Below, in pieces: positions 4,050 to 19,765 of a DNA stretch of 64,000 bases. The translations under genes were made by a program, and so were the position numbers. The notes under the pieces are model-generated. The model saw only the letters and a program-made list of their open reading frames with translations, made no database searches and was not told the origin of the DNA. The stretch spans positions 37,946 through 101,945 of the forward strand of contig CAVUSE010000009.1 of assembly GCA_963744135.1 (NCBI GenBank), given 5' to 3'. Numbering within the stretch: position 1 is the first letter of the stretch; each line of letters starts with the position of its first letter. Origin of the DNA: an uncultured Solirubrobacterales bacterium (GTDB lineage Bacteria; Actinomycetota; Thermoleophilia; Solirubrobacterales; Solirubrobacteraceae).

Positions 4050-4328
4050 ATGGAAGGCGATCTACAACGAGCGGTCGGCCACAACCTGCGGGCCTACCGC
4101 CAGGCCCTCGGCCTCAGCCAAGAGGCGTTCGCGGACGAGCTCTGCGTCCACCGCACCTACATGGGCGGCATCGAGCGCGGTGAGCGCAACCTGACCCTCA
4201 AGAGCCTGGAGCGCATCGCCGGCCGGATCGACGTCGACCCGCTCGCCCTGTTGCAGCCGCCCGAGGACGAGTCAACGCCGCCGTCCGCACGGGCCACAGG
4301 CTTGACGGCTCACGCCACGCGGCCCTAG
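4050..4328 (+). CDS. XRE-family HTH regulator (controller C-protein-like)
   Basis: LSQEAFADELCVHRTYMGGIERGERNLTL matches the Cro/C1 HTH_3 signature. Confidence 0.9.
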   Translation: MEGDLQRAVGHNLRAYRQALGLSQEAFADELCVHRTYMGGIERGERNLTLKSLERIAGRIDVDPLALLQPPEDESTPPSARATGLTAHATRP

Positions 4329-4398: not shown

Positions 4399-4689
4399 GT
4401 GTGCCTCTCATGCCCGATGAGCAGCCGACCCACGACCAAGGCCCGCGCCGATTGGCTGATCCTTGACCTCTTGCTTGAGGAGGGCACCCGTCGCCCCTGG
4501 GCGACCGCCGAGATCACCCGCGAATACGGCCACGAACTCAACGCCATCGACGCGATCGACCGCCTCCACGGCGCCGGACTCACCCACAAGACCAGTGACG
4601 GCTTCGTGTTCGCCACCCACGCTGCTGCCCGCTACCACCAAATCGCCGATCAGGCACCATCGCCACGCGCCTCACCGGCGAGCGAGTAA
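4399..4689 (+). CDS. small winged-helix-like protein
   Basis: ILDLLL..RPWATAEI..DAIDRLHGAGL..SDGFVFA pattern; similar to 5574..5843. Confidence 0.6.
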   Translation: MCLSCPMSSRPTTKARADWLILDLLLEEGTRRPWATAEITREYGHELNAIDAIDRLHGAGLTHKTSDGFVFATHAAARYHQIADQAPSPRASPASE

Positions 4690-4737: not shown

Positions 4738-5160
4738 CTACTGCTCCGGCTGCCCGCCCTCGATCACCCACAGCCGAGGGAGCCGCAGCGGCGGCTCGCC
4801 CACGCCGCCGAGCGTCCGGCTGGCGACCTCAGCCACACAGAACGCATCAGCCAACATGGCCCGAGCGAACTCGCTGATCGCGTCATCGATGACCCGGCTT
4901 GCCCGTTCGTGCAAGCGGCCAAACAGCGCCAAGACATCGGCGTCGCCCAGCTGCACCTCGTAGCGCTCGCGGGAGCCCACCTTCTCCCACCCGATCAGAT
5001 CCAGCAGCCGCGCGGCCTGCTCGAAGTTGCGACGCAGCCACCGGGCGCGATTGATCTCATCGGCTGCCAGCACCAACGCCAAGTCCCCGGCCTCGGCCAA
5101 GTCGCTGACTACGAAGCCATATACCGCGTTGCGCTGCGCCCGATCCAACACGATTGCCAT
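4738..5160 (-). CDS. hypothetical protein
   Basis: ATG at 5160 preceded by GGAGG; 140-aa helical ORF. Confidence 0.55.
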   Translation of the reverse strand: MAIVLDRAQRNAVYGFVVSDLAEAGDLALVLAADEINRARWLRRNFEQAARLLDLIGWEKVGSRERYEVQLGDADVLALFGRLHERASRVIDDAISEFARAMLADAFCVAEVASRTLGGVGEPPLRLPRLWVIEGGQPEQ

Positions 5161-5573
5161 ACCAGGAGCCTCCAATCCGAGGGACAGAGCGGCCCAGATC
5201 CCAGGAGCGAACAAGGGCCTGGGCCGCCCCCAAAGCAAACCAAGCCAGGCCGTGATATGGCAAGGTGTGGAGCTGGCTAATCATCATGATTCGTGTGCTG
5301 GCGGTCCGATGGTAGTGGCACTATCGAAAATCTCCTGTTCGCGGCAGTTACTCGGGTGACTGGCTCTCATTCACAGATATTTACGAGTGACAGTTCACGC
5401 GCTGCCACGAGGCACGATCATTCGACGACAAGCCGCCGATTTACCGAAAATCCCGGCAAAACCAAAGGGGGATTTTTGGCGTCCTGGCGGGCTGGTAGAC
5501 CTTGCGCGTGAAAAGGGTAAACCAGTGACCCCCGGCCGGATAGTAGCCAGCCGGGGGTCGTACACAGGAGGAC

Positions 5574-5843
5574 ATGTCTCCCATGCCGGCCCATCATACG
5601 CCACAGAGCGACACATACCTGGAGCAGCGCGCCATCATCCACCAGCTGCTCCGCGACGACCACACCGAACGCTGGACACCCAAACAACTCCACCAACGCG
5701 CCCTCTCGGACATCGCACCCGAGACGATCGACGAAGCTCTCGCCGAACTGGAGGCCGCTGGCGTGGCCTGGCGCCTGGACGGCTACGTCGGCGCCTCACT
5801 CTGTGCCCGCCACCTGTTCTCACTCGACCTCATCGGCATCTGA
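5574..5843 (+). CDS. small winged-helix-like protein
   Basis: AGGAGG RBS; IIHQLL..ERWTPKQL..DEALAELEAAGV..LDGYVGAS. Confidence 0.65.
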   Translation: MSPMPAHHTPQSDTYLEQRAIIHQLLRDDHTERWTPKQLHQRALSDIAPETIDEALAELEAAGVAWRLDGYVGASLCARHLFSLDLIGI

Positions 5844-5852
5844 GAGGCCGCC

Positions 5853-6485
5853 ATGCGACTCTCAGAAATGGGCCTTGAGCCCACCACGCTGGCCTGCCTG
5901 CACCGCGGCGGCATCAACACCACCTACTGGCTACTCGATCACACCTACCGGGAGCTGATCTGGCATTCCGAGATCACCCCCGAGGCACTCTACGACATCC
6001 TCCGTGCGCTCCGCCGGCACGACCTGACGCTGAAATCGCACACCAAGGGAAGAGAGCGGCCGGTGAACGAGCGCAATCTCGAGGTCTTCCGCCTGCGCGT
6101 TGTCAAGGGCCACCGGCTCAAGGCAACCGGCGAGCAGGTCGGCATCGGCGTCGAGCGCGTCAGGCAGATCCTTGCGGCCTGCTTCGGTCTGCGGGGCGCA
6201 CCACCGGCCGTCAAAGCCAAACCCCACCGCATCGAGAACCAAAGCTTGCCCCCCGACTGCGATCAGGTCGGCCGCGCCATAGGGCGCCTGCGCGCCGCCC
6301 GGGGCCTCACCGTCGATGACCTCGCCGCCGCGATCGATATCAGCGCTGAGCAGCTGGCCCGGATCGAGGACGGACTGCGCGACCCCACCTGGACCACGCT
6401 CTCCAGGCTCGCCATCGCGCTCGACACCACGGCGGCGCTGCTGGCCTACGCCATCGAAGTCGAGCAACCCACGGGTAGCACCTGA
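5853..6485 (+). CDS. fusion regulator: RNAP alpha-CTD-like domain + sigma70 region-4-like HTH + XRE HTH
   Basis: LSEMGLEPTTLACLHRGGINT..L resembles alpha-CTD; VFRLR..GHRLKATGEQVGIGVERVRQI resembles sigma R4; LRAARGLTVDDLA..IEDGLRDPTW is an XRE HTH. Confidence 0.7.
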   Translation: MRLSEMGLEPTTLACLHRGGINTTYWLLDHTYRELIWHSEITPEALYDILRALRRHDLTLKSHTKGRERPVNERNLEVFRLRVVKGHRLKATGEQVGIGVERVRQILAACFGLRGAPPAVKAKPHRIENQSLPPDCDQVGRAIGRLRAARGLTVDDLAAAIDISAEQLARIEDGLRDPTWTTLSRLAIALDTTAALLAYAIEVEQPTGST

Positions 6486-7174
6486 TGCCTGATCGCCAGC
6501 TCATCCTCGTCATCGAGGCCGACGACACCGTCAGCCGCCCGATCGTTGACCAGCTCGCTGCCGATGACCACGCAGCAAAGATCGCCCGCAGCGTGGGCCA
6601 CGCCACCGCCTTGGCCGTCATGGAGCCGCCGGCGCTCGTGGTGCTCGGCGCACTCGCTACACCCACCGACGCCCTCACGCTGCTGCGCATGATCCGCAGC
6701 AGCCCGGACGCTCCCTGGCAACAGGACGTGCCCGTGATTCTGCTCAGCCCCCACACCCAGGAGTCCGACCTACTGCGAGCCTTCGAGGCAGGCGTCGATG
6801 ACTTCATGGCCCACCCGCCGAGCTACCTGGAACTACGCGCCCGCCTGCGAGCCCTCCTGCGACGCGCCACGCCGCGAAACCACCGAGTGCTCCAGGTCGG
6901 CCCGCTGAAGATCGACACCGACGCACACACGGCCAGCCTCCACGGACAACGCCTCGCCCTACGCCGCATGGAGTACGAGTTGCTCGTCCACCTCGCCGGC
7001 GAGCCCCAGCGGGTCTTCCCCAAGCACGAGTTGCTGCGGGCCGTTTGGGGATACCCCGAGGTCTGCTCCACGCGAACGCTCGATAGCCACGCCAGCCGCC
7101 TGCGCCGCAAGCTCGCCGCCAGCAACGAACGGTGGGTCTTCAATGTCCGCAGCGTGGGCTACCGGCTTATATAA
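6485..7174 (+). CDS. orphan OmpR/PhoB-family response regulator with an atypical receiver domain
   Basis: C-terminal trans_reg_C (EYELLVHL..ELLRAVWG..RTLDSHASRLRRKL..VRSVGYRL). Phospho-acceptor Asp position reads G (ALVVLG); conserved KP reads HP. Confidence 0.85.
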   Translation: MPDRQLILVIEADDTVSRPIVDQLAADDHAAKIARSVGHATALAVMEPPALVVLGALATPTDALTLLRMIRSSPDAPWQQDVPVILLSPHTQESDLLRAFEAGVDDFMAHPPSYLELRARLRALLRRATPRNHRVLQVGPLKIDTDAHTASLHGQRLALRRMEYELLVHLAGEPQRVFPKHELLRAVWGYPEVCSTRTLDSHASRLRRKLAASNERWVFNVRSVGYRLI

Positions 7175-7194
7175 GGCGCCGGCAGGCCCGACCA

Positions 7195-7218
7195 GTCGCC
7201 CAATGGCACTTGTGCGAC
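7195..7218 (+). repeat. dif/Xer-like site A: GTCGCCCAA-TGGCAC-TTGTGCGAC
   Basis: Imperfect inverted arms around a 6-bp spacer; intergenic; repeated at 9514, 11048 and 12340. Confidence 0.75.
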
Positions 7219-7237
7219 GCCGAGTGCATATTGCTAC

Positions 7238-7267
7238 TTGACAACTTTGCCAGTGTAGACACATACT
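7238..7267 (+). promoter_or_regulatory. sigma70-type promoter TTGACA-N18-CATACT, probably giving a leaderless mRNA
   Basis: -10 element ends 6 nt before the ATG at 7274. Confidence 0.6.
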
Positions 7268-7273
7268 AAGCCA

Positions 7274-7525
7274 ATGCCGCACAAAACCAACACACCAAAA
7301 ACTCTCAAACAACTTCTTTCCACTGACAATCATATTCCCGGTATACGGCCACGGTATTACCTACCGGTGTTCATCGTTTCGGTTATCCTTTCGTTCATGA
7401 TTACGCCATCGCCCAACTATCTCCCGATAGACGTACAGCTTTTTCTTGCCTTCGTCATATTTGCCTTGATCTCGGCGATCTCGGCTTTTATTGGCCGTAT
7501 CCTGCGTCGTATCAAGCATCACTGA
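7274..7525 (+). CDS. small two-TM membrane protein (possible immunity-type protein)
   Basis: 83 aa, two hydrophobic helices, low GC, own promoter, convergent with 7531..9405. Confidence 0.7.
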   Translation: MPHKTNTPKTLKQLLSTDNHIPGIRPRYYLPVFIVSVILSFMITPSPNYLPIDVQLFLAFVIFALISAISAFIGRILRRIKHH

Positions 7526-7530
7526 TCGAC

Positions 7531-9405
7531 TCACGGGGCTCCAGCGTTCGCAGCAACTTGTACGCATGCATGAAGGCCGAGGATGCTGTTGAAGTCGTAG
7601 GCAATCTGGCTCACGTTGGACCTGAGAAATGCTCGCACTAGATCGGGAAGTATCTCGACATCTGCCAGCGCATTTTTCGCGTCTTTGATCTTCGCAACAA
7701 TCTCAGACACGCTCCTATAGCCAGCCGGCGCCTTCGGAAGCACCTTGTAGTGCGCAATGTCGTAAAACGTCTCTGCGGCTGGATAGAGTGCCTTTGGGAT
7801 CTTGGCCAAAACCTCGGCACTCTTGGCAACCTCAATTACCTTGAGCAGCTTGAGCGGAAAGGCAACGAGCAGCGCAACCCCAGCTGCACACTTCGCATCA
7901 AGCACTGCCTCGGCAGCCTTGCACTTCAAGCCTGCAAGGACACGCTTCAAGAGGCTGCCATGCACGGGTTTGCACGCGCTTATAACAGGTAGCGACGGAC
8001 TGCTGCTACCTCCACCCTCCTGGGGTGGTGCCCCGCTGACTGGTTGAGCGCCGCCGGTGCCGTTTGTGTTTGCTCCACCGCTTGACGGCGACTGTGGACT
8101 GCCTGTCGTCGTCAATGCTTCCTGTAGGCCGAGCTGGTAATCCTTTCCGAGACCAGGAACGGTGTATGCCGACACCGTTGGTGCGACCGTCGGTTCCTCT
8201 ACTTCACCGGCCATATACAGACGTTCGCTATCGAGTGCGGTACCAAACATGGTAAAGCCATATTCACCATAGCCATCAGCTTCGATCGGAGGGAACATCA
8301 TTGATCCCGTCTGGGCTGATCGGAATTCAACCTGTGCTCCAAGAACATCCTTCACTCGGCTGCACCGAGCAGCGGTAGATCATAAAGGCCGGCAAAGCTA
8401 CAACACCGTTTACATCTACATGCACCGGAAAAGAGCCGCCATCCTGGGCAGGCCCGATCGGCCCTTTGGCATGATCGGTCCACCGTTCTGATCCGGTGGC
8501 GCTCAGTGATGTAAAGACCGCCGACGCATTGGACTCACTATTGGCGAAAATCACTCCACCATCCGGCGTAGCAGCTAGGTTGGTCTGACTACAGTACGCT
8601 TCTTTATCCGTCCAAGTCCACGCGATACCACTCGGGGTGATCTTCTCGACACTCGCGTGTTCGCAGCCCCCATCGTAACCAGCGACAAAGACAGTCCCGT
8701 CGGCGCCCGCCGAGTTGCTATATGCCTCATACGCGGAAATAGGCGCGCCGGTGGTGTAGTTGGTGAGTTCTTCGCCACTATAGTTCAGGTAGTAGACCAG
8801 ACTGTCGGTCTCCACAACAATGATGCCACCAGTGTAGGCGTGCAAGCCGGTGACATCGGAGAAAGATTGTTCAAACGTCATCGCGCCGGTCTGCTCGTTA
8901 TACCCGACTACCTTGGAGTAGGCGCCGTTCCACATCGAAAAGAACACGCTGCCATTCGCCCCCAGGACCGGCCCGGTGCGCCAGCTCACAAATCCGCCGG
9001 TGGGCGTCCCCATCTGACCGAGCCTGCCGCCGAAATCGACTCAATGACTGGATTGCCAGAGGCTTCTTCCGTCAGCACGTAGAGATTACCCTCACTGTCA
9101 CTAATTCCATCCATGCAGGTCGGCGCATAGCCCTTCACGAGCGGCAGATGCCATACGACGCTGCCATCACGAGTTACATACTCGCAATTACTCGTCAAGA
9201 GGTTGCCGTTCGGCGCCACAAAAGCCGTGTCGTTCCGTTCGATTGGAACACTCCACGCCACGCTTGGAAGGTCTGCGCGCCCGATCGCAGGACCCACCAG
9301 GCCAGCAGCGATGCAGACTATCACCGACGAGAGCACGGCAAGCAGCCGTGAGGAGCGGGGCAGACCACCGGCAGCAACGAGCAGCAACAACTTCCGTGCG
9401 TCCAT
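7531..9405 (-). pseudogene. secreted protein of about 624 aa (signal peptide, PQQ-like beta-propeller repeats, G/S/P linker, helical Cys-containing C-terminal domain) split by two single-base frameshifts
   Basis: Three overlapping ORFs (8986-9405, 8327-9013, 7531-8355) join at indels near 9010 and 8345. Repeated 'dG.v.W' blades. May be intact if the indels are sequencing errors. Confidence 0.7.
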
Positions 9406-9513
9406 AGGGTCGGCAGTCTATACGGTTCGCCGCCTATTGAGACTGTACGGGTCTGCTGCCGCCATCAAAGCCGCTATCCGCACCGCTCGGATAAGTTGAT
9501 GCCTCAGCGCATC

Positions 9514-9537
9514 GTCGCCCAATACCGGTTGTGCGAC
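9514..9537 (+). repeat. dif/Xer-like site B: GTCGCCCAA-TACCGG-TTGTGCGAC
   Basis: Both 9-bp arms identical to site A; different spacer. Confidence 0.75.
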
Positions 9538-9726
9538 GTAAGGCCACCCTCCGTGGCAGATCGGGGCGCCCAGCTAGAGCTCAAGTGACGTGCTCGACGT
9601 TGCAACCGCAGGATGGAGGTCAATCCGTACCGGAGGCATGGCGTTTGATGGCCTGACCCCCTGAGTTCGGTCCGGTGCGTATGAGAGTTCTACCCGTCCG
9701 TGAGAATGGACGAGGAAGGAACTCTG

Positions 9727-10005
9727 ATGAAGCGACGCAGGCATACCCCGGAGCAGGTGATCCGCAAGTTGCGCGAGGCGGAGAGGATGCTCGGAGAGGG
9801 CAAGGCGGTCCCGGAGGTCGCCAAGGCGCTGGAGGTCTCTGAGGCGACCTTCCATCGCTGGCGTAACCAGTACGGAGGGATGAAGGCCGATGACGTCAAG
9901 CGCTTGAAGGAGTTGGAGCGCGAGAACGGCCGGTTGAAGCGGATCGTCGCTGACCAGGCGCTCGAGAACCAGGCGTTGAAGGAGATCGCCAAGGGAAACT
10001 GGTGA
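9727..10005 (+). CDS. IS3 transposase OrfA
   Basis: HTH plus leucine zipper (RLKELERENGRLKRIVAD); GGGAAAC slippery site at 9993-9999 for -1 frameshifting. Confidence 0.92.
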   Translation: MKRRRHTPEQVIRKLREAERMLGEGKAVPEVAKALEVSEATFHRWRNQYGGMKADDVKRLKELERENGRLKRIVADQALENQALKEIAKGNW

Positions 10006-10874
10006 GCCCGGCCCGTCGGCGTCAGGCGGTCGCGATGCTTCGCGGCCGCCTCGGTGTCAGCGAGCGCTGGGCGTGCAAGGTGGTGGGGCAGCATCGCTCT
10101 ACGCAGCGCCACGAGCTCACGCGCGCCGGCGGCGATGCCGTGGTGCGCGGGAGGCTGCGCGAGATCTCCGAGGAGCGCCCGCGCTGGGGTTACCGGCGTG
10201 CGCACCACAGGCTGTGTGAGGAGGGCTGGGAGATCAACCGTAAGCGGGTGCAGCGCCTGTGGCGCGAGGAGGGCCTACGGGTGCCCGTCCGGCGGCGTAA
10301 GCGTCGCCGCCTGGGAGATTCGACGGTCCCGGCCAGGCGGCTGCGCGCTGAACGCGCCAACCAGGTGTGGGCGCTGGACTTCCAGCACGATCAGACGGCC
10401 GACGGCCGGGCGCTGCGGCTGCTGAACATCATCGATGAGTTCACCCGCGAGGCGCTCCAGATGCTGGTCGCGCGCAGCATCGACGCAGACACGACTGTCA
10501 GCGTGCTCGAGAAGCTCGCCGCCGAGCGCGGCGCACCCGAGTACATCCGCTGCGACAATGGCCCGGAGCTGACCGCGCACGCCCTCAAAGACTGGTGCCG
10601 TTTCACCCACACGGCGACGAGCTACATCGACCCAGGGGCGCCTTGGCAGAACGCGTTCGTGGAGTCCTTCCACTCCCGCGTGCGTGACGAGCTGCTCAAC
10701 GTCGAGGAGTTCTCATGCCTCGGCGAGGCCAGGGTCGTGATCGGCGACTGGCATGAGGACTACAACCAGCGCCGCCCACACTCAGCGCTCGGAATGCAGA
10801 CCCCAGCCGCGTTCGCAAAAGCCCACCCGCGAGCTCCTGCCCGTGGACATGACGCGCTGTGGACAGCAAGCTGA
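10002..10874 (+). CDS. IS3 transposase OrfB (DDE/rve)
   Basis: WALDF..D, DNGPE, PWQNAFVESF, YNQRRPHSAL motifs. Confidence 0.95.
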   Translation: MSPARRRQAVAMLRGRLGVSERWACKVVGQHRSTQRHELTRAGGDAVVRGRLREISEERPRWGYRRAHHRLCEEGWEINRKRVQRLWREEGLRVPVRRRKRRRLGDSTVPARRLRAERANQVWALDFQHDQTADGRALRLLNIIDEFTREALQMLVARSIDADTTVSVLEKLAAERGAPEYIRCDNGPELTAHALKDWCRFTHTATSYIDPGAPWQNAFVESFHSRVRDELLNVEEFSCLGEARVVIGDWHEDYNQRRPHSALGMQTPAAFAKAHPRAPARGHDALWTAS

Positions 10875-11047
10875 CCACAGCGCTTGGACAACCCCTGCGG
10901 GGTTGCCCACATGCCCACCGGCACGACCACCACACCCGCCGACCGCCAGGCCCGTTACGCTCCCCGTGTCACCATTCCACCCACTCTCACACGCGGTGGA
11001 CCGACAAACGGGGGCCGGCCATTGATGCTACCGCATCGTATGGGAGC

Positions 11048-11071
11048 AACGCCCAACGCCGATTGTGCGAC
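11048..11071 (+). repeat. dif/Xer-like site C: AACGCCCAA-CGCCGA-TTGTGCGAC
   Basis: Right arm identical to A and B; left arm 7/9 identical. Confidence 0.7.
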
Positions 11072-11246
11072 CTCGTGTGATCGACTACACTCAAACGAAT
11101 GCATTGGGTCTTTGAGGGCATTGGCACGGCACTAGTTATCTTTGTTTTGGGTTTGATCGCGAGTAAGCGCCGCAGCGTCGTTCAGCGACAGCGAGCCCGC
11201 GATCACGCGACCCAGATACAGAGCGGGCGCAACACAAAGCTCAAAG

Positions 11247-12317
11247 ATGACTGATCAGTCGCAAAAATCGGGAGCGGATAGCCTCCAGATCCAAGCGGGC
11301 CGAGACGTCATTGTCGGTGTGACAGCTGAGGAAGTAGTCAGTATTACCCGGGCTGAGATCGCACGAGGTGTCGAGCTGTTGACCGCAACGGCGAAGGAAG
11401 TAGCCGAGGCGCGCGTGCAAGCCCTGGGCGACAAGATCATTGAGGCGTTCTCCGACAGACACGAGTTGGTTGCGGCGTTCGCCGATCCCGACTTTCAGTT
11501 TTCATTGCGCGATGCCGCCCGGACCGCAGCCTCCAGCGACAACGAATACACAGAGCAACTACTAGTAGATCTGCTCGCAAATCGGGCAGAGGAGGGAAAT
11601 ACAGCTCGGGTTCGTTTGGCTACCAGCCACGCGATCCGCGCTGCGGACAAGCTGTCGAAGGAAGCGCTGAATGGCCTTACCGCGATCTGGGCGCTCAGCT
11701 TTCTTTGGTCGCCGGGCGCCACGTTTGACGAGAGCCTCACCGGCGAATCAAGCGATGCTGGCACGTTGGTCGCCTTGGGGCTTCCGTCCGACAATGGTTG
11801 GGTGAGTGATCTCGACGTTCTCAATCTAGCGAGACTACAGACTCTTGGTAGGCGCAATGCGTATGTTGACGTTCTCGCACATCGCTTCCGCGCGTTTCTA
11901 GTTCCAGGGATAGATGGCGAGGCTGACCAAGCCTTGCTCGCCGAAACGCAGCAAGCAGTTCCCGAGCTTCGATCCCTTATCATTGAGCATCCCTTGAAGC
12001 CGGGCTACTTCATGCTGACACCCTCTGACGAGGAGGCGGTCAAGGCGGCACTGCCAGAGGGTGCGACGAGGGATCAGTCTATAAGCGCGATAATCGGCAA
12101 GAATGGGTACGGCATGGAAGACAATACGGCCCGCGCAAGCTTGGCCGCGCTCACCGACGCTGCGCCGCTCGCGACGGTACGGGATTGGTGGAGCACAGTG
12201 CCGACTTTCGACTTCACGGTGGCGGGCGATGTGATTGGCTTCGTAAGCGCCCGGCGGCATTTTGGTATTGCAAACGCTCGATCGATTGCGGACCTTCTCC
12301 GAATGCGTGCAACCTGA
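11247..12317 (+). CDS. LPO_1073/Vpar_1526-like protein
   Basis: N-terminal Q..G..S.QIQAGRD and DPDFQFSL..A...AA....LLVDLL..R motifs recalled for this family; not verified by search. Confidence 0.75.
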   Translation: MTDQSQKSGADSLQIQAGRDVIVGVTAEEVVSITRAEIARGVELLTATAKEVAEARVQALGDKIIEAFSDRHELVAAFADPDFQFSLRDAARTAASSDNEYTEQLLVDLLANRAEEGNTARVRLATSHAIRAADKLSKEALNGLTAIWALSFLWSPGATFDESLTGESSDAGTLVALGLPSDNGWVSDLDVLNLARLQTLGRRNAYVDVLAHRFRAFLVPGIDGEADQALLAETQQAVPELRSLIIEHPLKPGYFMLTPSDEEAVKAALPEGATRDQSISAIIGKNGYGMEDNTARASLAALTDAAPLATVRDWWSTVPTFDFTVAGDVIGFVSARRHFGIANARSIADLLRMRAT

Positions 12318-12339
12318 GGTTGCGGCGCAAGCGGGACGC

Positions 12340-12363
12340 GTCGTGGAATGCCGCTTGTGCGAC
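12340..12363 (+). repeat. dif/Xer-like site D: GTCGTGGAA-TGCCGC-TTGTGCGAC
   Basis: Right arm invariant; left arm 6/9 identical; intergenic, 22 bp after a stop codon. Confidence 0.65.
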
Positions 12364-12370
12364 ACAGCGG

Positions 12371-13483
12371 TTAGGATGTACTGGGTTGAGGAGGGCTGGA
12401 GGGAGTGGTGGATTGAGTCAGTGGGTCCACCCCGGACATGAGACGTGAAGCGAACCGCCCAAGGTCAGCATGTAGCTGGCGGTCGGCTGGAGTCTGCCAA
12501 TTTTCCGTGCGGTTACGTAGTAGTGTGAGAGTTCGCTTCAACTCGAGAAATCGGGGGGCTAGACCTTCGACATACGCCTTGATGAGCGTGTCAAGTTGCG
12601 CTTTGACCGCTTGCGGCATACCGATCGTCATCTGCGGGAGTGGAGTGACGGGATCGGGTTCGATGAGCGAAGCTACTGGGGCAGATTCCCGTCGCGGTTC
12701 AAGGCGACGCAACAGCAAAAGGAGCTGCGGCTCTAATGCCGAGAATAGCTCCATGTACTCATCGGCAGCAGCCTTTTGAGCGGGAACTTGTTCACCTTCA
12801 ACCCTGCGCCCGGTTAATGCGGCCAACCTATCGCGGTTAGCGACGATTTCGCTGTACGTTTGGGTCCAGAAAGTGTTACTTGAGCGGATCGCTCGCAGCA
12901 GTGCCTCTGTTTCGCCGGCTGTCGGCTCAACCTCGGTATCCGTTATTGGTACTGGTTCGGCCTCAGTGAGAGCGTCTACGATTTTGATGGTTGAGGCTTG
13001 GAACTTAGCTCCTGCTGCCTCCAGCTCCTTGAGATCTACATGGCGGTGGCGACTTGCCGGGCGATGTTTTGTGTCGACGGGGTAGCGATAAGCGAAGCTA
13101 CCTGGGTCGCTTCGATGCATCAGTTGCACGAACTCATCGGTTTCTGATGAGAATTGCATCGCCAAGTCGCTACGGCCTACCGCATCGAGGGCGCGTTTGC
13201 ATCTTTCTGTCAACTCGGCGATGTCGTGGCGTGGTGGGATTGTTGCCGAAGTGCGCTCAAGAATCAGCTTAAGGCCGACCTCCACTCGGTGGCGCTGGAG
13301 GAATACGACATCGACTGCGATGTCGTCCACAGCTGCGCTAAATATCAATAGGTACTTTGACAAGAAGGCGGTGTGGCGACCCAAGCCGCGGAATTGCGAC
13401 TCCCAGCTACCGACGTACTCAGTTTGCGCGATCAGTCCATCGCGTGGCGAGCCTTTGGGGAAAATGTCGTCGGAGAGAGCCAT
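12371..13483 (-). CDS. hypothetical protein with HEPN-like N-terminal domain
   Basis: RHRVEVGLK..HDIAEL..DPGSFAYRYP resembles the HEPN E..LK / H.L..L / RY pattern. Confidence 0.6.
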   Translation of the reverse strand: MALSDDIFPKGSPRDGLIAQTEYVGSWESQFRGLGRHTAFLSKYLLIFSAAVDDIAVDVVFLQRHRVEVGLKLILERTSATIPPRHDIAELTERCKRALDAVGRSDLAMQFSSETDEFVQLMHRSDPGSFAYRYPVDTKHRPASRHRHVDLKELEAAGAKFQASTIKIVDALTEAEPVPITDTEVEPTAGETEALLRAIRSSNTFWTQTYSEIVANRDRLAALTGRRVEGEQVPAQKAAADEYMELFSALEPQLLLLLRRLEPRRESAPVASLIEPDPVTPLPQMTIGMPQAVKAQLDTLIKAYVEGLAPRFLELKRTLTLLRNRTENWQTPADRQLHADLGRFASRLMSGVDPLTQSTTPSSPPQPSTS

Positions 13484-13521
13484 CTAGAGCCAAATGGGGA
13501 GTCGACCACGATGGGCTGTAG

Positions 13522-14076
13522 CTAGCCGTGGCTTCTATTTTCTGGTGGCCAGCTACCGGGAACGGGGAATCCCTGTTCAGCAGCATAGTAGTAGTCGGTG
13601 AGGGGCCGGCCTACCTCGGTTGTTCCGCTGCCGTCTAGGGGGATGTAGACGCCGTTGGTTGCTTTCATGATTCGCCCAGCCTTCCAGGCATCATAGAGGC
13701 TCGCGCCGAGCGCGCTGGGATTTGTGGGAGTCTTCATCCCTCGTTCCGTCATGAACTTATAGAGGGAGGTTGGCCCCATTGCGGTACCTCCGAGTTCGTT
13801 ATAGGCTCGTTCGAGCGCGGCTACCGCAAGATCCTGGGCCGGTGCCGCTCGTCTCCTGAGCGGCTGCTCATCCGGTCGGGTGGGAGCCTGCTCCGCTGGT
13901 TGCGCTCGACCCCGCGCAATGGCCGCTGGATGCCCGACCACTCGGCGCAGCAGCTCGACCTGCTGGTTGAGCTTTGTTTGCTCGTGGAGCTTTTCTTCAT
14001 AGAGACGCAGAAGCATGGGCATCTTGGCCGCCACCTCCTCCGGATTGGATAGATCGATGTTGAAGTCCTCAGACAT
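13522..14076 (-). CDS. hypothetical protein, coiled coil plus winged-helix-like domain
   Basis: 184-aa ORF; helical pattern ending in G.I.K..NGVY wing. Confidence 0.65.
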   Translation of the reverse strand: MSEDFNIDLSNPEEVAAKMPMLLRLYEEKLHEQTKLNQQVELLRRVVGHPAAIARGRAQPAEQAPTRPDEQPLRRRAAPAQDLAVAALERAYNELGGTAMGPTSLYKFMTERGMKTPTNPSALGASLYDAWKAGRIMKATNGVYIPLDGSGTTEVGRPLTDYYYAAEQGFPVPGSWPPENRSHG

Positions 14077-14281
14077 CGCTAGCCTAACTCTAGCATGCCC
14101 TAGCGATGGCAGAGTCCACCTAGCTATGGCGCTACGTCGTTCCTGGACCTCGCTGGTGCATGACCGCCTCGACCAGCACGTAGCGCCCCCGAGCTACCCG
14201 GACCAGCCGGCCCGAAGAGCCCGCAACGTCCGAGGCGAGCGCGCCCTTGACCGAGGACCGCGGCACAGGCTCGCCCACTAG

Positions 14282-15272
14282 ATGATTGATTCCACGGCGG
14301 TGGCTGTGGTACGGGCGGGTTTATAGGCAGCAGGGTCGAAGTCGGCGGTGCTCTAAACACACCGTCGACCGAAGGGGGCCTCGATGGACGCCGACCTCGA
14401 CCTGCTGCTGACTGCGGTTTATGTCACGGCTGACGATCTCCTGCCCGAGCGGCCGGGGAACGCCAAGCGGATCGTCACAGACGCGGAGGTCGTCACGCTC
14501 TGCGTTGCCCAGGCGATCATGGGGATCCCGTCTGACCGGCGGTTCCTCGCTGTCGCTTCCAAGCATCTGCGCCACCTGTTCCCGCAGATCCCTGCCCAGC
14601 CCGGGTACTTCAAGCGCCGTCGCCGTCTGTCGGACACGCTGGAGTGGCTGATGGGCGTGTTCGCCAGCCAGAGCCCGGGGTTCTATGACGATCTGCTGCT
14701 GGTTGACAGCACGCCGGTTGAGTGCGCTCGCAGCCGCGAGACGGTCAGGCGCTCAGCGCTCGCTGACGCCGCGGACTATGGGTGGTGCGCCAGCCACAGC
14801 CGGTTCTTCTGGGGCTTCCGGCTGCACGCGCTGTTCTCCCCGGACGGCACCCCGAGAGCACTCGCGCTCACGTCACCTAAGCGTGACGAGCGGGAGGTCG
14901 CGCTGAAGCTCCTCGAGCGCTGCCGGCGCCATGGCGGAGAGACCGTGATCGGCGACAAGGGCTACGCGGGACGCGAGTTCGCCACCCGCGTCAGCGAGCT
15001 GGACGCCACGATCATCAGACCCCGCCGCAAGGACGAGCCCGGCCGCGGACCGCACCTCGCGCCGATCCGCCAAAGGATCGAGAGCATCCTCTGGACCTGC
15101 AAGGACATCCTCACGCTCGAGCGCCACGGCGCACGAACTCTCGCCGGGCTCAGAGAGCGCATCCTGCAACGCCTCCTCACCCTCGCCGCCGCCATAACCC
15201 TCAACCACCAACTCGGCCGACCAAGCCGCGCACTCGTCAACTACTGCGCATGAACCCCGTGGAATCAATCAT
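14282..15272 (+). mobile_element. IS982-family-type insertion sequence
   Basis: Perfect 16-bp terminal IR ATGATTGATTCCACGG / CCGTGGAATCAATCAT flanked by CTAG at 14278-14281 and 15273-15276. The IR/target boundary is ambiguous because CTAG is itself palindromic. Confidence 0.92.
14384..15253 (+). CDS. DDE transposase (actinobacterial IS982-like)
   Basis: VDSTP, GDKGY, RQRIES motifs; DAEVVTL N-terminus. Confidence 0.9.
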   Translation: MDADLDLLLTAVYVTADDLLPERPGNAKRIVTDAEVVTLCVAQAIMGIPSDRRFLAVASKHLRHLFPQIPAQPGYFKRRRRLSDTLEWLMGVFASQSPGFYDDLLLVDSTPVECARSRETVRRSALADAADYGWCASHSRFFWGFRLHALFSPDGTPRALALTSPKRDEREVALKLLERCRRHGGETVIGDKGYAGREFATRVSELDATIIRPRRKDEPGRGPHLAPIRQRIESILWTCKDILTLERHGARTLAGLRERILQRLLTLAAAITLNHQLGRPSRALVNYCA

Positions 15273-15812
15273 CTAGCGCCTCAACGGCTATATGGATGTC
15301 CTTGGCACGCATCGGCTCGCCCCGGTCCGTCAGCACCTGAACGACGGCGTTGAGCACCCAGCCGGGCCGGCGGGCTCGCTGCCGACGGCTCTCAGGCCGC
15401 CGTCGAGGCCCGCCACTGGCCCGCAAGGCCGCCAGCTTCTTGGCCAGACGGACAAGCGACCCCTGTAGATCATGGTTCGAATAGTGTCCAAGGAGGTCCA
15501 TTTTTGGAGACCTAAACCTCGCTAATCGAACCAAGCTGGGCACCCAGTCGATGATCGTGTCGTCCGGCGAGGCTGTGGGCTGTTAGGGCCGGGCACCAGA
15601 GGCACCATGCGAGCCGCCGGAGCCGCCGCACCGCGAACTCATCCCGAGTACGACTGCGCTGTACCGCGGGTGGCGGGCTTGCCAGCACGACGGAGACCGC
15701 ATTTTCCATGCCAGAAAGCGACGCTTGCGCGTGGCCCGTTATCCTACTCTGCGGATACGATCAGAGTCCCGTCACGATTCCTGTCGTCGCAACTCGATCG
15801 CCCCCCTCGGCC

Positions 15813-17594
15813 ATGACCGCAACCACAACATCGGGACCAACGGCGCCGGTTCCCAAGGATCCGCAGCCTAGCGTTGATCGGATCGACGGCCTCGCAAGCC
15901 GGATCCTCACTGGCGACATCCTACTACCGAAGTTCCAGCGCAACTTCGTATGGGATCGTCCACAGATCATCTCTCTGCTCGACTCTGTAGCTCGCGGCTA
16001 TCCTATCGGCAGCGTCCTCCTCTGGCAGAGTAGCCAAGAGCTTCGTAGCGAGAACCGAATCGCAGACTTGGAGATTAAGCCTCCGAAGTCGGGGTATCCG
16101 GTCAATTACCTCCTCGACGGCCAGCAGCGTCTCTCGACGATCTGTGGTGCGCTGCACTGGTACGGCTCGGATCCAAAGAGTCGCTGGAACCTCGCCTACG
16201 ACCTGCGTACCCAACAGTTCATCCATCTCGACACTCTTGACGACCCGCCGCTACACCAGATCAGGCTCAACAAGATGCCCGATCCATCAAAATACTTCGG
16301 CCAGATGGCCGCTCTGGATAGCGCAGATAAGGACGAGCTCCGAATGCGGGCAGATGCGCTTTTTAATCGATTCAAGGACTACAAGGTCGCCACCGTGACG
16401 CTCGGCGATATGTCGATCGAGGACGTTGCCCCGATTTTCGAGCGAATCAATAGCACGGGCACGCCGCTCACGATTGTAGATCTCATGCGCGCGGCTACGT
16501 GGAGTCCCGAGTTCGACCTGATTGACACCATCGACGCTTTGCTCTCGGCTATGGCATCGAAGGGCTTCGGAGCTATCGATAAGAAGGTTGTGCTACGCAA
16601 TTTGTCAGCGGCCGCTGGGGGTGGCTTCTCGACGGACAGTATTGATGAGCTTCGCAAGCTCCAACCCCCAGCACTCAAAGCTGCCGCCGAGGACACCGAG
16701 AAGTCGTACTTCCGGACCGTCGATTTCCTAGCAACTCAGATGAACGTGCCATCCGCACAGATCATCCCGTACTCGAACCAGGTCACCGTACTGGCTGAGA
16801 TCTTTCGGAGGACTACTTCGCCTACATCTGCTCAGTACGCTGCAATCACTCAGTGGCTTTGGCGTACTGCGGTGGCTGGCTACTTCAGCGGCTGGAATAC
16901 TGGTGAGATGGCCTCCGACCTAAAGGCCGTCGCAAACTTTGCTGATGGCAATGGTGCCGACATCGCGGTCGATATCACCCCTCCGCGGCCCGAGATATGG
17001 ACGACGCGGCAGTTCCGGGCCAACAATGCACACGCCAAGCTGCTTGCGATCATTCTCGCTCATCTTCGGCCCGTCGACCTGCTGACCGGCCAGCTAATCG
17101 ATCCCGGCGAGGCACTCGCTTGGACGAATCAAAGAGAGTTCCACCACTTTTTCCCGAGGCATTACCTTGAGAACAAGGGGATCGCTCGTCAGCGTCTTAA
17201 CGCTCTTGCAAATATTATCATGCTTACGTCCGACAGCAACAAGAAGATCTCGAATCGGGCCCCCTCCGACTACCTGCGGGACGTGGAGGACGCTGCGCAA
17301 CAGGCGGGCGCGAGCGTTCAGAGTTGGCTCGATCCCAATCTAATCTCTGCCGAGGCGTTTGAAGCTGCAAAGGACGACGACTTCGAGCGGTTCTTGGCGC
17401 TTCGAGCACAGACAATCCACGCTCACGTTTTCGGGCTTGCCGGCTGGCCTGACGTTGCGATAGGCTCCCCCGTTCTCTCCCTCGGTAAGGATGATTCGGA
17501 GATGCTGGTCGCTGCCGAGGAAGATACGGATTATGTGTTCGAGTCGCCAAAGGCCGACGCGGTCGCTGGCGACATTCACAGCTCGAGCGGATGA
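15813..17594 (+). CDS. GmrSD-like type IV restriction protein (DUF262 plus C-terminal HNH-like DUF1524)
   Basis: PKFQRNFVW, LLDGQQRL, FERINSTG, EFHHFFP..NALAN motifs; start could extend to 15708. Confidence 0.85.
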   Translation: MTATTTSGPTAPVPKDPQPSVDRIDGLASRILTGDILLPKFQRNFVWDRPQIISLLDSVARGYPIGSVLLWQSSQELRSENRIADLEIKPPKSGYPVNYLLDGQQRLSTICGALHWYGSDPKSRWNLAYDLRTQQFIHLDTLDDPPLHQIRLNKMPDPSKYFGQMAALDSADKDELRMRADALFNRFKDYKVATVTLGDMSIEDVAPIFERINSTGTPLTIVDLMRAATWSPEFDLIDTIDALLSAMASKGFGAIDKKVVLRNLSAAAGGGFSTDSIDELRKLQPPALKAAAEDTEKSYFRTVDFLATQMNVPSAQIIPYSNQVTVLAEIFRRTTSPTSAQYAAITQWLWRTAVAGYFSGWNTGEMASDLKAVANFADGNGADIAVDITPPRPEIWTTRQFRANNAHAKLLAIILAHLRPVDLLTGQLIDPGEALAWTNQREFHHFFPRHYLENKGIARQRLNALANIIMLTSDSNKKISNRAPSDYLRDVEDAAQQAGASVQSWLDPNLISAEAFEAAKDDDFERFLALRAQTIHAHVFGLAGWPDVAIGSPVLSLGKDDSEMLVAAEEDTDYVFESPKADAVAGDIHSSSG

Positions 17595-17694
17595 GCGTCA
17601 ATGTGTCGGCAGATGTTGTAGCGGATTGCGTGGTAGATGATCTCGAAGCTCGGCCTTTGAAGGACAAACCTGCTCCTTGCGACGGGGCAGTAAG

Positions 17695-18135
17695 TTAAGC
17701 GCCCGGCAGTTGGACGCGCTGAAAGACGAGCACCTCGGCGAGCTTGTCGAAGTGCGCGTCGCGGTGGAGTACAGCGAGGCCACCGTGCTCCGCGGCTGCC
17801 GCGGCGATCAGCGCGTCGGTGACGGGCACGCGGTGGTAGCCGTCGCTACGCTCGGCCAGCTCGCCGAAGGCGCTCATCGCGGCGTCGGCGACGGCGCGAT
17901 CGTTGCGCAGGATTCGCAGCGCGTCGAGCTCGGCCTCCAATGCGAGGTACTCGGAGGTGCTTCGCGCCGAATATAGGATCTCCATGCGCACGATTGGCGT
18001 GATCCACATGCGATCGTCGAGGATCGCCTCGTGAACGAGGGCGCCGAGGTCCTCCGGGAGCGCCGCGATGCGCCACCAAGCGGAGGTGTCGGCGATGAAC
18101 GGCTGGTCGCTGCGCAGCAGTTCGGCGGCGTCCAC
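17695..18135 (-). CDS. vapC: VapC PIN-domain toxin
   Basis: IADTSAW, MEILYSARS, DALIAAAA, VLHRDAHFD. Confidence 0.9.
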   Translation of the reverse strand: MDAAELLRSDQPFIADTSAWWRIAALPEDLGALVHEAILDDRMWITPIVRMEILYSARSTSEYLALEAELDALRILRNDRAVADAAMSAFGELAERSDGYHRVPVTDALIAAAAAEHGGLAVLHRDAHFDKLAEVLVFQRVQLPGA

Positions 18136-18140
18136 CGCGG

Positions 18141-18308
18141 CTATTGCTCAGTATCGGTCAGCTGCTCGATGCGCGCGAGCGTGTCGCGATCCAGACCATC
18201 CGGGCTGCGCAGGCGCTCGGCGAGGGAGCGTAGGCGCTCGGCGCGCTCCTGCTGGCTCAGCGTCGGCTGCTCCGCGGTGGGCGTCGTGCTCAGGACCGAA
18301 TGCTTCAC
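18141..18308 (-). CDS. small putative antitoxin
   Basis: 55-aa ORF immediately upstream of vapC; GTG start just after a TACCCT -10-like element. Confidence 0.55.
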   Translation of the reverse strand: MKHSVLSTTPTAEQPTLSQQERAERLRSLAERLRSPDGLDRDTLARIEQLTDTEQ

Positions 18309-18312
18309 GCCG

Positions 18313-18684
18313 TCAGGGTAGCGCGCGAGACCCCGGGCGCTGCACCTCGACCAGCACGTAGCGCCCCCGCGCCACCCGGACCAGTCGTCCCGACGAGCCC
18401 GCAACGTCCGAGGCCAGCGCACCCTTGACCGAGGATCGCGGCACCGGCTCGCCCACCAGCGCCTCAACGGCCGCGTGGATGTTCTTGGCCCGCATCGGTT
18501 CGCCCCGGTCGGTCAGCACTTGGACGATGGCCTTGAGCACCCAGCCAGGCCTGCGGGCTCGCTGCCGGCAGACCACGGGCCGCCGCTGAGGCCCGCCACT
18601 GGCCCGCAAGGCCGCCAGCTTTTCGGCCAGACGGCCAAGCGACCCCTGTAGGTCGTGGTTCGAATAGTGTCCAAGCAGGTCCAT
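18313..18684 (-). CDS. winged-helix (HARE-HTH-like) protein whose 5' end overlaps a tRNA-end-like motif
   Basis: VLKAIVQVL..GEPMRAKNIHAAVE..SSVKGAL..RVARGRY; conserved with synonymous changes in the second copy. Confidence 0.7.
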   Translation of the reverse strand: MDLLGHYSNHDLQGSLGRLAEKLAALRASGGPQRRPVVCRQRARRPGWVLKAIVQVLTDRGEPMRAKNIHAAVEALVGEPVPRSSVKGALASDVAGSSGRLVRVARGRYVLVEVQRPGSRALP

Positions 18685-18725
18685 TTCTCCGGAGATGCTG
18701 GTTCCCGGGCCATAGAGTCCTCCTC

Positions 18726-19676
18726 ATGGCTGTAGAGAGTTTGCGTCGGCGCCTCGCCGACCTGTTGGGATTTGAGGTCCCGCCCGCGCCCGACCCGCTC
18801 GTCCGCGCCGTACAGCGGCGAGGTGGATATGTCGAGCAGGTAGTCAGCTACACAGGAGATGAGGGCGATGTGCCAGCGCTGCTGCTGATGCCCGACCGCC
18901 CGTGCGGCGCGGGCGTGGTGGTGCATCATCAACACCACGCCCAGTGGCAGTTCGGCAAGTCAGAGGTAGCAGGACTTTGCGGAGACCCATGGCAGGCGTT
19001 CGGACCGGCGCTTGCTCGGCGAGGCGTGACGGTCATCGCCCATGACGCTGTCGGATTCGAGGACCGCAGGCCCGGGCCCCCTGGCACCGATGCTCGGGGG
19101 TCAGACGCAACCGACTACTTCACGACGATGTGCCACCGGCTCGTGCGGGGACGATCGCTGATGTGCACCGTCCTCGCCGATGCCGCCGCGGCGCACTCGG
19201 TGCTCGCAGGGTGCGACGGAGTCGAGGAGACTCGCATCGGGGCCGTCGGACACTCGATGGGCGGCGCCAGTGTTCTGTTGCACGCCGCCCTCGACCAGCG
19301 GATTGCGTTCGCCGTCGTCAGCGGCTCCGCGTGCACCTACCAGGACAGGATTGCCCATGGCGTCGGTATCGACTGTGCTCAGGCCATCCCCGGCTTGCTG
19401 GAGCTCGGGGACCTGGACGACATCGCCGGGCTGGTTGCACCTCGGCCGTTGCTGCTGTGCTCAGCCGAGGATGACAAGTACTCGCGTGATGCTCCTCGCA
19501 TCGCCCAAGCGGCCGAATGCGCTTACCGGCAGGCGGGAGCACCGCAGGCCCTCGAGCATTATCGCGCGCGTGGTGGGCATGCCCTCACCGAGGAGCGCTT
19601 CGACGCCATCATCGAATGGCTCTCCTCATTGATCGCGATGGCTTGGGGCGGAGCGTCGATGGGTCCTTGCTGGTAG
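18726..19676 (+). CDS. alpha/beta hydrolase (dienelactone hydrolase-like)
   Basis: GHSMG nucleophile elbow, APRPLL, D and GGH catalytic positions. Confidence 0.85.
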   Translation: MAVESLRRRLADLLGFEVPPAPDPLVRAVQRRGGYVEQVVSYTGDEGDVPALLLMPDRPCGAGVVVHHQHHAQWQFGKSEVAGLCGDPWQAFGPALARRGVTVIAHDAVGFEDRRPGPPGTDARGSDATDYFTTMCHRLVRGRSLMCTVLADAAAAHSVLAGCDGVEETRIGAVGHSMGGASVLLHAALDQRIAFAVVSGSACTYQDRIAHGVGIDCAQAIPGLLELGDLDDIAGLVAPRPLLLCSAEDDKYSRDAPRIAQAAECAYRQAGAPQALEHYRARGGHALTEERFDAIIEWLSSLIAMAWGGASMGPCW

Positions 19677-19765
19677 CTCGACTCGAGCTCGGTTGGCTCC
19701 ATTGTTGTCGACCGAGCGAAGTCGTGCCGACGAACCCGGCTGCTGCGTTGAGGGTTCTCCAGTCT

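Follow-up and report, generated by a model that had tools for sequence, protein, structure and literature searches.

Co-oriented 24-bp sites of four ordered spacer types as probable recombination sites in the cargo region of a putative mobilizable element of Solirubrobacteraceae

We analyzed a 64-kb stretch of DNA from an uncultured bacterium of the Solirubrobacterales (the window; G000:C9:37946-101945), in which four co-oriented 24-bp sites, here called S1 to S4, separate unrelated blocks of genes. In relatives, the sites come in four spacer types that follow one another in a fixed order, and the cargo changes at their borders. The observation and this comparative pattern are firm, and from them we infer, with somewhat better than even confidence, how the sites are used: they are probably double-stranded crossover sites of a site-specific recombinase, dividing the cargo region of an integrated element into slots. 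More tentatively, and with a degree of belief that stops a little short of even, we propose a natural counterpart of engineered recombinase-mediated cassette exchange, in which four mutually incompatible sites would be served by a recombinase acting in trans and slots would be traded. That recombinase may represent a kind for which no role in cassette exchange has so far been described. To our knowledge, gene-cassette platforms are few, namely integrons, pdif modules, and the staphylococcal cassette chromosome (SCC) islands, and integrons are rare or absent in Actinomycetota. Thermoleophilia are abundant, poorly studied soil bacteria, and full-text literature searches returned no description of this system. 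The four sites of the window are as follows.

7195-7218, + strand: S1 site, GTCGCCCAA-TGGCAC-TTGTGCGAC; variable cargo begins here (left border)
9514-9537, + strand: S2 site, GTCGCCCAA-TACCGG-TTGTGCGAC
11048-11071, + strand: S3 site, AACGCCCAA-CGCCGA-TTGTGCGAC
12340-12363, + strand: S4 site, GTCGTGGAA-TGCCGC-TTGTGCGAC; flanked by convergent genes

Each site is an inverted repeat of 9-6-9 layout, with an invariant right arm (TTGTGCGAC), a degenerate left arm, and a 6-bp spacer. The first-pass annotation, made from the sequence of the window, had described four co-oriented sites with an invariant right arm, a variable left arm, and differing spacers, and all of this holds on the + strand. It had also seen no further copy of the right arm by eye; the 9-mer indeed occurs exactly four times in the window, always on the + strand, against a shuffle expectation of 0.68, with four copies reached in 1 of 100 shuffles. 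Across the whole assembly (4.50 Mb, 12 contigs) there are 22 copies of the 9-mer, and only in S1 to S4 does the exact right arm face a left arm that agrees with its reverse complement in at least six of nine positions. Scanning the assembly with a 27-position matrix trained on 89 unique sites from relatives gave five matches of at least 30.9 bits, these being S1 to S4 and a site at C3:255374 in a decayed second copy of the element, while the next-best match scored 16.9 bits. The motif is thus not scattered: its five strong occurrences in 4.5 Mb all fall in two element copies. The same scan found no further site upstream of S1 (an S0), and neither a tRNA nor any other host locus in the assembly, which is 86% complete, holds a copy with up to three mismatches.

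All four sites are intergenic, as first described, S1 beginning 20 bp past the stop codon of a response-regulator gene; in relatives, 80 of 106 sites lie outside open reading frames (ORFs), as called by a crude procedure whose ORFs take up 87% of the locus DNA. Between the sites, GC content is 0.55-0.62 compared to 0.68 for the genome, which bears out the lower-GC cargo noted at the outset. A terminator or hairpin reading was rejected, because folding is not conserved across S1 to S4: only S2 folds better than shuffled sequences on both strands, and S3 and S4 fold no better. Left-arm changes occur without compensating changes in the right arm, and no known RNA family matched window positions 1-22000 at E 0.1 or better. 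The absence of a conserved hairpin favors a double-stranded site.

Within the genus, 12 of 24 genomes contain the pattern AA-N6-TTGTGCGAC, whereas all 16 genomes searched in five other families of the order lack it. A stricter S1/S4 pattern matched 5 of 15 genomes of the genus, 1 of 74 from other genera of the family, and 5 of 211 from other families. Because the matches outside the genus are all single and occur at about the rate of a reversed control pattern, the system is essentially confined to one genus among the genomes searched. Many of these genomes carry two to six arrays, and the loci that we fetched for comparison represent part of the genus's arrays.

Within the fetched loci, 90 of 110 copies of TTGTGCGAC are preceded by one of five hexamers, which define the four types: TGGCAC or CGGCAC for S1, TACCGG for S2, CGCCGA for S3, and TGCCGC for S4. 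The first-pass annotation had noted a different 6-bp spacer at each site; these spacers are not arbitrary and make up four conserved types in fixed order. Over 89 unique sites, the left-arm consensus GTCGCNCAA equals the right arm read in reverse complement. Beyond the 24 bp, only the three bases past the right arm show conservation, and that weakly, for a conserved span of 24-27 bp. In 32 arrays, neighboring pairs of sites are ascending in the order S1, S2, S3, S4 in 48 cases, equal in 3, and descending in 1. Shuffling types within arrays 20,000 times gave a mean of 25 descending pairs and a minimum of 13; the arrays are related by descent, so this test overstates their independence and yields no true probability, which lessens the support that the order lends to our reading. 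Genus-wide lists keep the order, with a few tandem or irregular arrays (one irregular row, from an unpublished genome, was left out). Among metagenome contigs carrying a 17-mer of S1, 16 have S2, S3, or S4 downstream in order and three are irregular or tandem. Like-type duplicates are adjacent (S3-S3, S4-S4), and the hybrid-looking spacers TACCGC, CGCCGC, and TACCGA stand at the positions expected of them. One metagenome contig (L148) has an S1-S3 gap of only 147 bp and is a near-empty array, comparable to the gene-less 133-bp slot between S2 and S3 in the window. The existence of four ordered spacer types is more suggestive of elements exchanging slots than of capture at a single attI-like site.

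The strongest point for a crossover site is that the spacer is kept as four discrete, ordered sequences, and the sites as such do not change, although the backbone proteins of the elements that carry them may share no more than 29-59% identity with those of the window element. The layout of two inverted arms around a 6-bp spacer, with one arm invariant, fits the core site of a tyrosine recombinase, and the ordered types would fit pairing governed by the spacer. Core sites of this kind have a spacer of 6-8 bp that determines the choice of partner, and a 9-6-9 inverted repeat at exact breakpoints of homology resembles the crossover site of a dimeric site-specific recombinase. For tyrosine recombinases, the spacers of partner sites must match for efficient exchange. 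Such a demand would hold the spacers to a few shared types, while differing spacers within an array would protect it from self-deletion.

The same palindromic layout would also suit a dimeric helix-turn-helix (HTH) protein, and the element offers candidates. S1 directly follows genes for p96 (a small predicted winged-helix protein), an XRE-type regulator, or the response regulator, and the end of the array adjoins a HARE-HTH-like gene; these small HTH proteins, whose genes flank the array on both sides, could be regulators that bind the sites, which counts against our reading. The sites would then be operators or insulators for p96, XRE, or HARE-HTH proteins, and cargo would turn over by slippage on short repeats or by homologous exchange over 15-24 bases. 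We consider this unlikely. A spacer that is not read by the regulator should drift, yet four discrete, ordered spacers persist at the protein divergence given above, and S4 of the window lies between convergent gene ends rather than at a promoter.

The behavior of cargo at the sites bears on both explanations. Homology of the window to five other loci (including L002, L003, L004, and L020) ends at 7217-7221, at the very end of S1. When 104 unique sites were compared by their flanks, five pairs had the upstream 250 bp in common and four pairs the downstream 250 bp, and in 9 of 9 the opposite flank is unrelated. The upstream-sharing pairs have the same spacer and an identical or nearly identical left arm (5 of 5), while the spacer differs in two of the four downstream-sharing pairs. 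A 520-bp hicB-hicA cassette begins immediately past the right arm in every context in which it occurs, namely after S1 (L006), S2 (L002, L005), S3 (L043), and S4 (L001, L003); where it ends in a site, that site carries a left arm of its own and a TGCCGC spacer. Similarly, an 829-bp cargo follows S4 in L002 and S1 in L008. Cargo boundaries in relatives therefore coincide with the sites, as the first-pass annotation had anticipated, both in all flank-sharing pairs and for hicAB, which is found after every site type. The flank-sharing patterns and the hicAB contexts together show that the left arm and spacer stay with the upstream DNA, and that one and the same downstream cargo can follow any type of site. 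Joins of unlike sites appear to cross at the border between spacer and right arm or inside the invariant arm. A crossing within the invariant 9-mer is also what slippage would produce, in favor of the operator explanation; on the other hand, 15-24 bp is short for homologous exchange, yet all nine flank-sharing pairs break there.

In two loci (L001:9545-9570 and L005:596-620), hicAB lacks its own S4 and abuts the HARE-HTH gene at a junction reading GGTGCTCGA-TGGCAC-GACCTGACG, left-arm-like with an S1 spacer and no right arm, which may be a hybrid terminal site.

A further explanation assigns the sites to the element's own enzymes: they would serve either as secondary attachment sites for the large serine recombinase, in the manner of composite SCC islands, or as additional nick sites for a MOBC-type relaxase. 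The genes of both are conserved 8-20 kb upstream of the arrays, the nearest NCBIfam models of the recombinase are CcrB and CcrC (although far below their cut-offs), and the hybrid-looking spacers at expected positions would fit as well. Sites of large serine recombinases span about 40-50 bp with a central 2-bp crossover, and MOBC relaxases, so far as we are aware, are restriction-enzyme-like and not known to rejoin DNA. Here, only 24-27 bp are conserved, the 21-bp repeat at the inferred ends of the element is unrelated to the sites, and the sites are invariant while the serine recombinases of relatives are 29-44% identical to that of the window (74% in one close relative). Moreover, a central crossover predicts a constant half-spacer in front of hicAB, which was instead found after four different right half-spacers (CGG, CGC, CGA, and CAC). 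The short conserved span, the unrelated end repeat, and the constancy of the sites while the enzyme varies make the serine recombinase an unlikely agent, and we regard involvement of the element's own enzymes as quite improbable.

If the sites are crossover sites, exchange could proceed as follows. A recombinase, supplied in trans, would bind the two arms as a dimer, and only sites with like spacers would pair, so that each of S1 to S4 would find its partner in the site of its own type on another copy. Recombination between like sites of co-resident element copies would then exchange either a single slot or everything downstream. Circles carrying one site would insert at a like site or between two like sites; the neighboring S3-S3 and S4-S4 duplicates are what the former event would leave behind. 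Rarer joins of unlike sites, by single-strand exchange at the right-arm border or by slippage on the 9-bp repeat, would give rise to shortened arrays and to the roaming hicAB cassette.

The distribution of cargo counts against such a scheme. The hicAB cassette disregards slots, and once it and the terminal flanks are set aside, cargo is so diverse that only five two-member clusters are left for judging slot fidelity: two in the same slot, one in different slots, one at variant sites, and one that is probably an IS3 transposase. Contigs from four public soil and permafrost runs covering 6400-15600 contain the empty sites of both insertion sequences of the region and one deletion variant; no joint between two S sites was found in them, which speaks neither for nor against the scheme, as contigs drop rare forms.

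The search for the enzyme likewise counts against the proposal, and in favor of operators. Recombinase genes were mapped by PF00589 and PF00239 in 10 genomes. The first-pass annotation had reported no tyrosine recombinase in the window, which proved correct and extends to the whole 104-kb contig; any such recombinase would thus act in trans. In four complete genomes with seven to eight tyrosine recombinase genes each, none lies near an array. A panel tblastn search of up to 5 kb upstream of S1 in metagenome contigs found no recombinase, with limited sensitivity and over flanks too short to reach the serine recombinase gene. XerC and XerD are the only tyrosine recombinases common to five array-bearing genomes, with 64-71% identity between genomes; in the assembly of the window, they map to the regions C5:163016-164020 and C5:426756-427930.

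We found a candidate host dif site at C5:30013-30040, ACGCTCGATAATGAATGTTATGTAAACT, that is, ACGCTCGATAA-TGAATG-TTATGTAAACT. Its pattern, ATAA-N6-TTATGTAAA, occurs once per genome in four of five genomes (three of the four complete relatives) with no control matches. The dif right arm TTATGTAAA agrees with TTGTGCGAC at 5 of 9 positions, and host dif is thus unlike the sites, a further point against recombination by the host's Xer proteins. The comparison with dif that the first-pass annotation had recommended therefore does not support its label of dif/Xer-like sites as a whole; the 9-6-9 layout with one invariant arm stands, while kinship to dif is not supported. In addition, both arms are the same half-site in inverted order, which suggests a homodimer rather than XerC plus XerD at the sites.

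Two tyrosine recombinases encoded beside arrays were considered as the array enzyme and rejected, as neither has a counterpart at other arrays: a 402-aa protein in genome G009 and one encoded to the right of the G216 array. In G009 (L006, L008, L117), the gene for the 402-aa enzyme lies with genes for an HTH protein and a 464-aa protein between the response-regulator gene and S1. Two of the three copies are at arrays; the third lacks S1. A site-like collapsed string, GTCGC-G-TTGTGCGGG, directly follows the regulator stop. A run of four tyrosine-recombinase genes occurs elsewhere, at C4:1784416-1789023, next to a palindromic ATAA-N6-TTAT motif at C4:1786957.

The first-pass annotation had also spoken of an integron-like platform. 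In an integron-type system, the sites would be single-strand, attC-like hairpins acted on by an IntI-type integrase. The end of the left arm and the start of the spacer can be read as RYYYAAC (GCCCAAC in S3), the crossover lies just before the TT of the right arm as it does at G|TTRRRY, and toxin-antitoxin cassettes are present; the two motifs are those generally given for integron sites. However, the integron integrase model TIGR02249 was over its cut-off in none of five genomes, which also speaks against our own proposal insofar as an integrase was sought, the hairpin is not conserved, and the sites measure 24 bp as against 57-141 bp. The order of spacers is fixed, and gene orientation shows hardly any bias: across 60 cassettes, for which the crude caller gave 142 ORFs, 16,575 residues (58%) are encoded on the array strand versus 11,958 on the other, so that the cassette orientation of integrons is not reproduced. 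This explanation is largely refuted, and we give it very little credence.

Compared to known systems, the arrays would work most like pdif modules and engineered sets of incompatible lox/FRT sites, sharing the cassette logic of integrons. In pdif modules of Acinetobacter, the pdif sites copy the host dif and alternate in orientation, and XerC/XerD are provided by the host in trans. Both systems have short double-stranded sites with inverted arms, a 6-bp spacer, and one better conserved arm, and both bound modules that include toxin-antitoxin pairs, with a recombinase that, for pdif, is host-supplied. In contrast to pdif, the sites described here are co-oriented, consist of the same half-site in both arms, do not resemble host dif, and fall into four ordered spacer types. 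Heterospecific lox/FRT sets are engineered to have common arms and differing spacers, such that only like sites should pair. As in those sets, shared arms with differing spacers could allow exchange of a slot without deletion of the array; the sets are man-made, whereas the arrangement here is natural and its spacer dependence is presumed. Integrons share with the arrays the co-oriented cassettes, a site at the 3' end of each cassette, crossover at an invariant TT-led motif, and gene-less as well as toxin-antitoxin cassettes. They differ in that the arrays have no IntI, no adjacent integrase or common promoter, and no conserved hairpin, and show 24-bp sites, genes on both strands, site types in a fixed order, and an actinomycete host.

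Composite SCC islands carry CcrAB large serine recombinases and repeats that derive from the chromosomal attachment site and are all of one type. They too are islands with a large serine recombinase, in which co-oriented short repeats separate modules open to gain or loss, but the sites studied here are unrelated to the end repeat of the element and of four types. The sfx sites of shufflons, recombined by Rci, are asymmetric with a conserved right arm and a variable left arm, as in our case; they are inverted and give only inversions within one gene, whereas the sites here are direct and bound unrelated genes. Judged by their sequence, the arrays would thus belong neither to pdif modules (not dif-like), nor to integrons (no IntI, no conserved hairpin, and little orientation bias), nor to SCC islands (short span, non-central crossover).

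The arrays add a cassette system in Thermoleophilia, with 24-bp sites that carry an apparent address code of four spacers in fixed order, and a route by which anti-phage genes such as those for dCTP deaminase, OLD/Gabija-like ATPases, and viperin-like enzymes could pass between mobile elements. Were pairing indeed governed by the spacer, co-resident copies would trade single defense or toxin-antitoxin slots without losing their arrays, the sites and their enzyme would constitute a ready-made set of orthogonal recombination sites, and the cargo without a Pfam family would be a source of candidate defense genes.

The array lies in what appears to be a 23-kb integrated element, the inferred ends of which are marked by 21-bp direct repeats. 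The upstream tRNA-Ala ends at C9:30222. The parts of the element around the array, apart from its cargo, are as follows.

C9:30223-30243 (left copy, following tRNA-Ala) and window 15514-15534 (right copy), + strand: 21-bp direct repeat, 21 bases that recur once
4050-4328, + strand: XRE-type HTH regulator (Pfam HTH_3, E 5e-13), with homologues upstream of S1 in relatives and metagenome contigs
4399-4689, + strand: p96, small predicted winged-helix protein (Atlas winged-helix leads only)
4738-7174: optional module before S1, encoding a 166-aa protein (- strand), an 89-aa protein, a 210-aa double-HTH protein, and an OmpR/PhoB-type response regulator (6485-7174), according to Pfam and NCBIfam
14173-15501, - strand: HARE-HTH-like small gene, backbone of the right end, split by an insertion sequence at 14278-15272

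Starting from the tRNA, the element encodes a large serine recombinase (Pfam Resolvase, Recombinase, and Zn_ribbon_recom), an IrrE/ImmA-like peptidase, a coiled-coil protein, an N6/N4 DNA methylase, and a relaxase (Pfam Replic_Relax). These are followed by a 749-aa ATPase with a weak match to TraD (E 3e-5), small genes, the XRE regulator, p96, the optional four-gene module, the array, the HARE-HTH-like gene on the opposite strand, and the right repeat. The reading frame of the serine recombinase crosses the left end repeat and stops within tRNA-Ala in antisense (L018:12158-12260, corresponding to C9:30158-30260), and integration may thereby set the C-terminal tail of the enzyme. In relatives, the same gene order occurs 8-20 kb upstream of arrays; among 14 upstream stretches, the recombinase was found in 10, Replic_Relax in 10, and the ATPase in 9. 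With the exception of one close relative, their backbone proteins are 29-59% identical to those of the window element.

The relaxase family PF13814 is the MOBC family. One report describes PF13814 in streptococci as part of integrative mobilizable elements that also encode a serine integrase and a VirD4 coupling protein (PMC5357655), and another describes a restriction-enzyme-like fold for the PF13814 relaxase (PMC3424549). Three core genes of our element, for the large serine recombinase, the Replic_Relax/MOBC relaxase, and the TraD/VirD4-like ATPase, match those of the streptococcal elements and lie between direct repeats at the integration site. The carrier therefore appears, by gene content, to be an integrative mobilizable element of the type with serine integrase, MOBC relaxase, and coupling protein. 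In contrast to the array described here, from a Solirubrobacterales host, a site-bounded cargo array is not mentioned for the streptococcal class in the accessible text (PMC5357655). The earlier notion of a platform consequently changes: the array would be the cargo region of such an element, which had been out of the first-pass annotation's sight.

In many relatives, p96, which had no match in Pfam or NCBIfam, is the gene immediately before S1 and ends 30-110 bp in front of it (L023, L030, L040, and metagenome contigs). The optional module occurs in 12 of the compared loci but is missing from others where p96 adjoins S1. At least four true close relatives of its response regulator are among the matches listed, all in metagenome-assembled genomes of Solirubrobacterales/Solirubrobacteraceae. 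At the right end, 14173-14278 and 15277-15501 are homologous to 18351-18690 and to the right flanks of relatives' arrays; the intact copy of the gene matched Pfam HARE-HTH at E 1.3e-3, and the empty-site joint of its insertion sequence (14277>15273) was found in one run. The decayed second copy of the element occupies C3:239763-255397 (L019, L020). There, the serine recombinase gene is fragmented, the response regulator shares 66% identity with that of the window, S4 is intact at C3:255374, and S1 is degenerate (AGCGCCCTA-TGGCGC-TTGGGCGAG at C3:252696). We count the decay of S1 alongside the broken recombinase gene in favor of our reading of the sites.

The cargo of the window comprises the following.

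7219-9513, both strands: slot 1 cargo, an 83-aa membrane protein (+) and a large PQQ-like beta-propeller gene (-), the latter in three frames in this assembly
9645-11021, + strand: IS3-family insertion sequence (Pfam HTH_Tnp_1 and rve), within slot 2
11072-12339, + strand: slot 3 cargo, a 51-aa ORF and a gene of the LPO_1073/Vpar_1526 family at 11247-12317 (NCBIfam NF045477, E 8.7e-20)
12364-14170, - strand: cargo after S4, encoding 370-aa and 184-aa proteins

The beta-propeller gene (- strand, 7531-9405) is represented by the overlapping ORFs 7531-8355, 8327-9013, and 8986-9405, apparently a single gene. Contigs of three public runs have one base fewer at position 8344, and those of two runs have an extra C after 9007; the frame breaks may be assembly errors in the record or belong to a real pseudogene. 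The joint 9644>11022, the empty site of the IS3 element, was found in contigs of three runs from three studies, and the distance between S2 and S3 without this element is 133 bp. Slot 2 is thus gene-less, in keeping with the short non-coding unit interrupted by IS3 that had been described, and the LPO_1073-like gene reported between S3 and S4 is likewise borne out by its NF045477 match. The label of a HEPN-like gene after S4, on the other hand, was not confirmed: neither the 370-aa nor the 184-aa protein had a match in Pfam, NCBIfam, or PADLOC, and the Atlas gave no more than a modest lead to HEPN.

In a contig from permafrost run X6, 17 bases ending at 11096 are joined straight to 13364, a break away from any site. 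This variant lacks the LPO_1073-like gene, S4, and most of the gene for the 370-aa protein.

Across relatives, slots after S1 measure 2-5.6 kb, and later slots are mostly 0.3-1.1 kb. A Pfam family (E 1e-5 or better) could be assigned to 35 of the 99 cassette ORFs, leaving 64 without one. Among the cargo with a name are hicAB pairs, found in at least six arrays, cytidine and dCTP deaminases, a deoxynucleoside kinase, a radical-SAM enzyme, methyltransferases, a subtilase, and RHS proteins. PADLOC detected four defense-type proteins: a dCTP deaminase (E 1.5e-127), an AriA/GajA/Old-like ATPase, a viperin-like protein, and a ShosT-like protein.

Past the inferred right end of the element, the interval 15708-20578 holds a GmrSD-type gene (PADLOC PDC-M55C, E 6e-84), a PIN gene, a second, intact HARE-HTH gene (18313-18684), and a gene for an HNH protein that matches type IV restriction enzymes. 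This interval may be a defense patch or the remnant of an older element.

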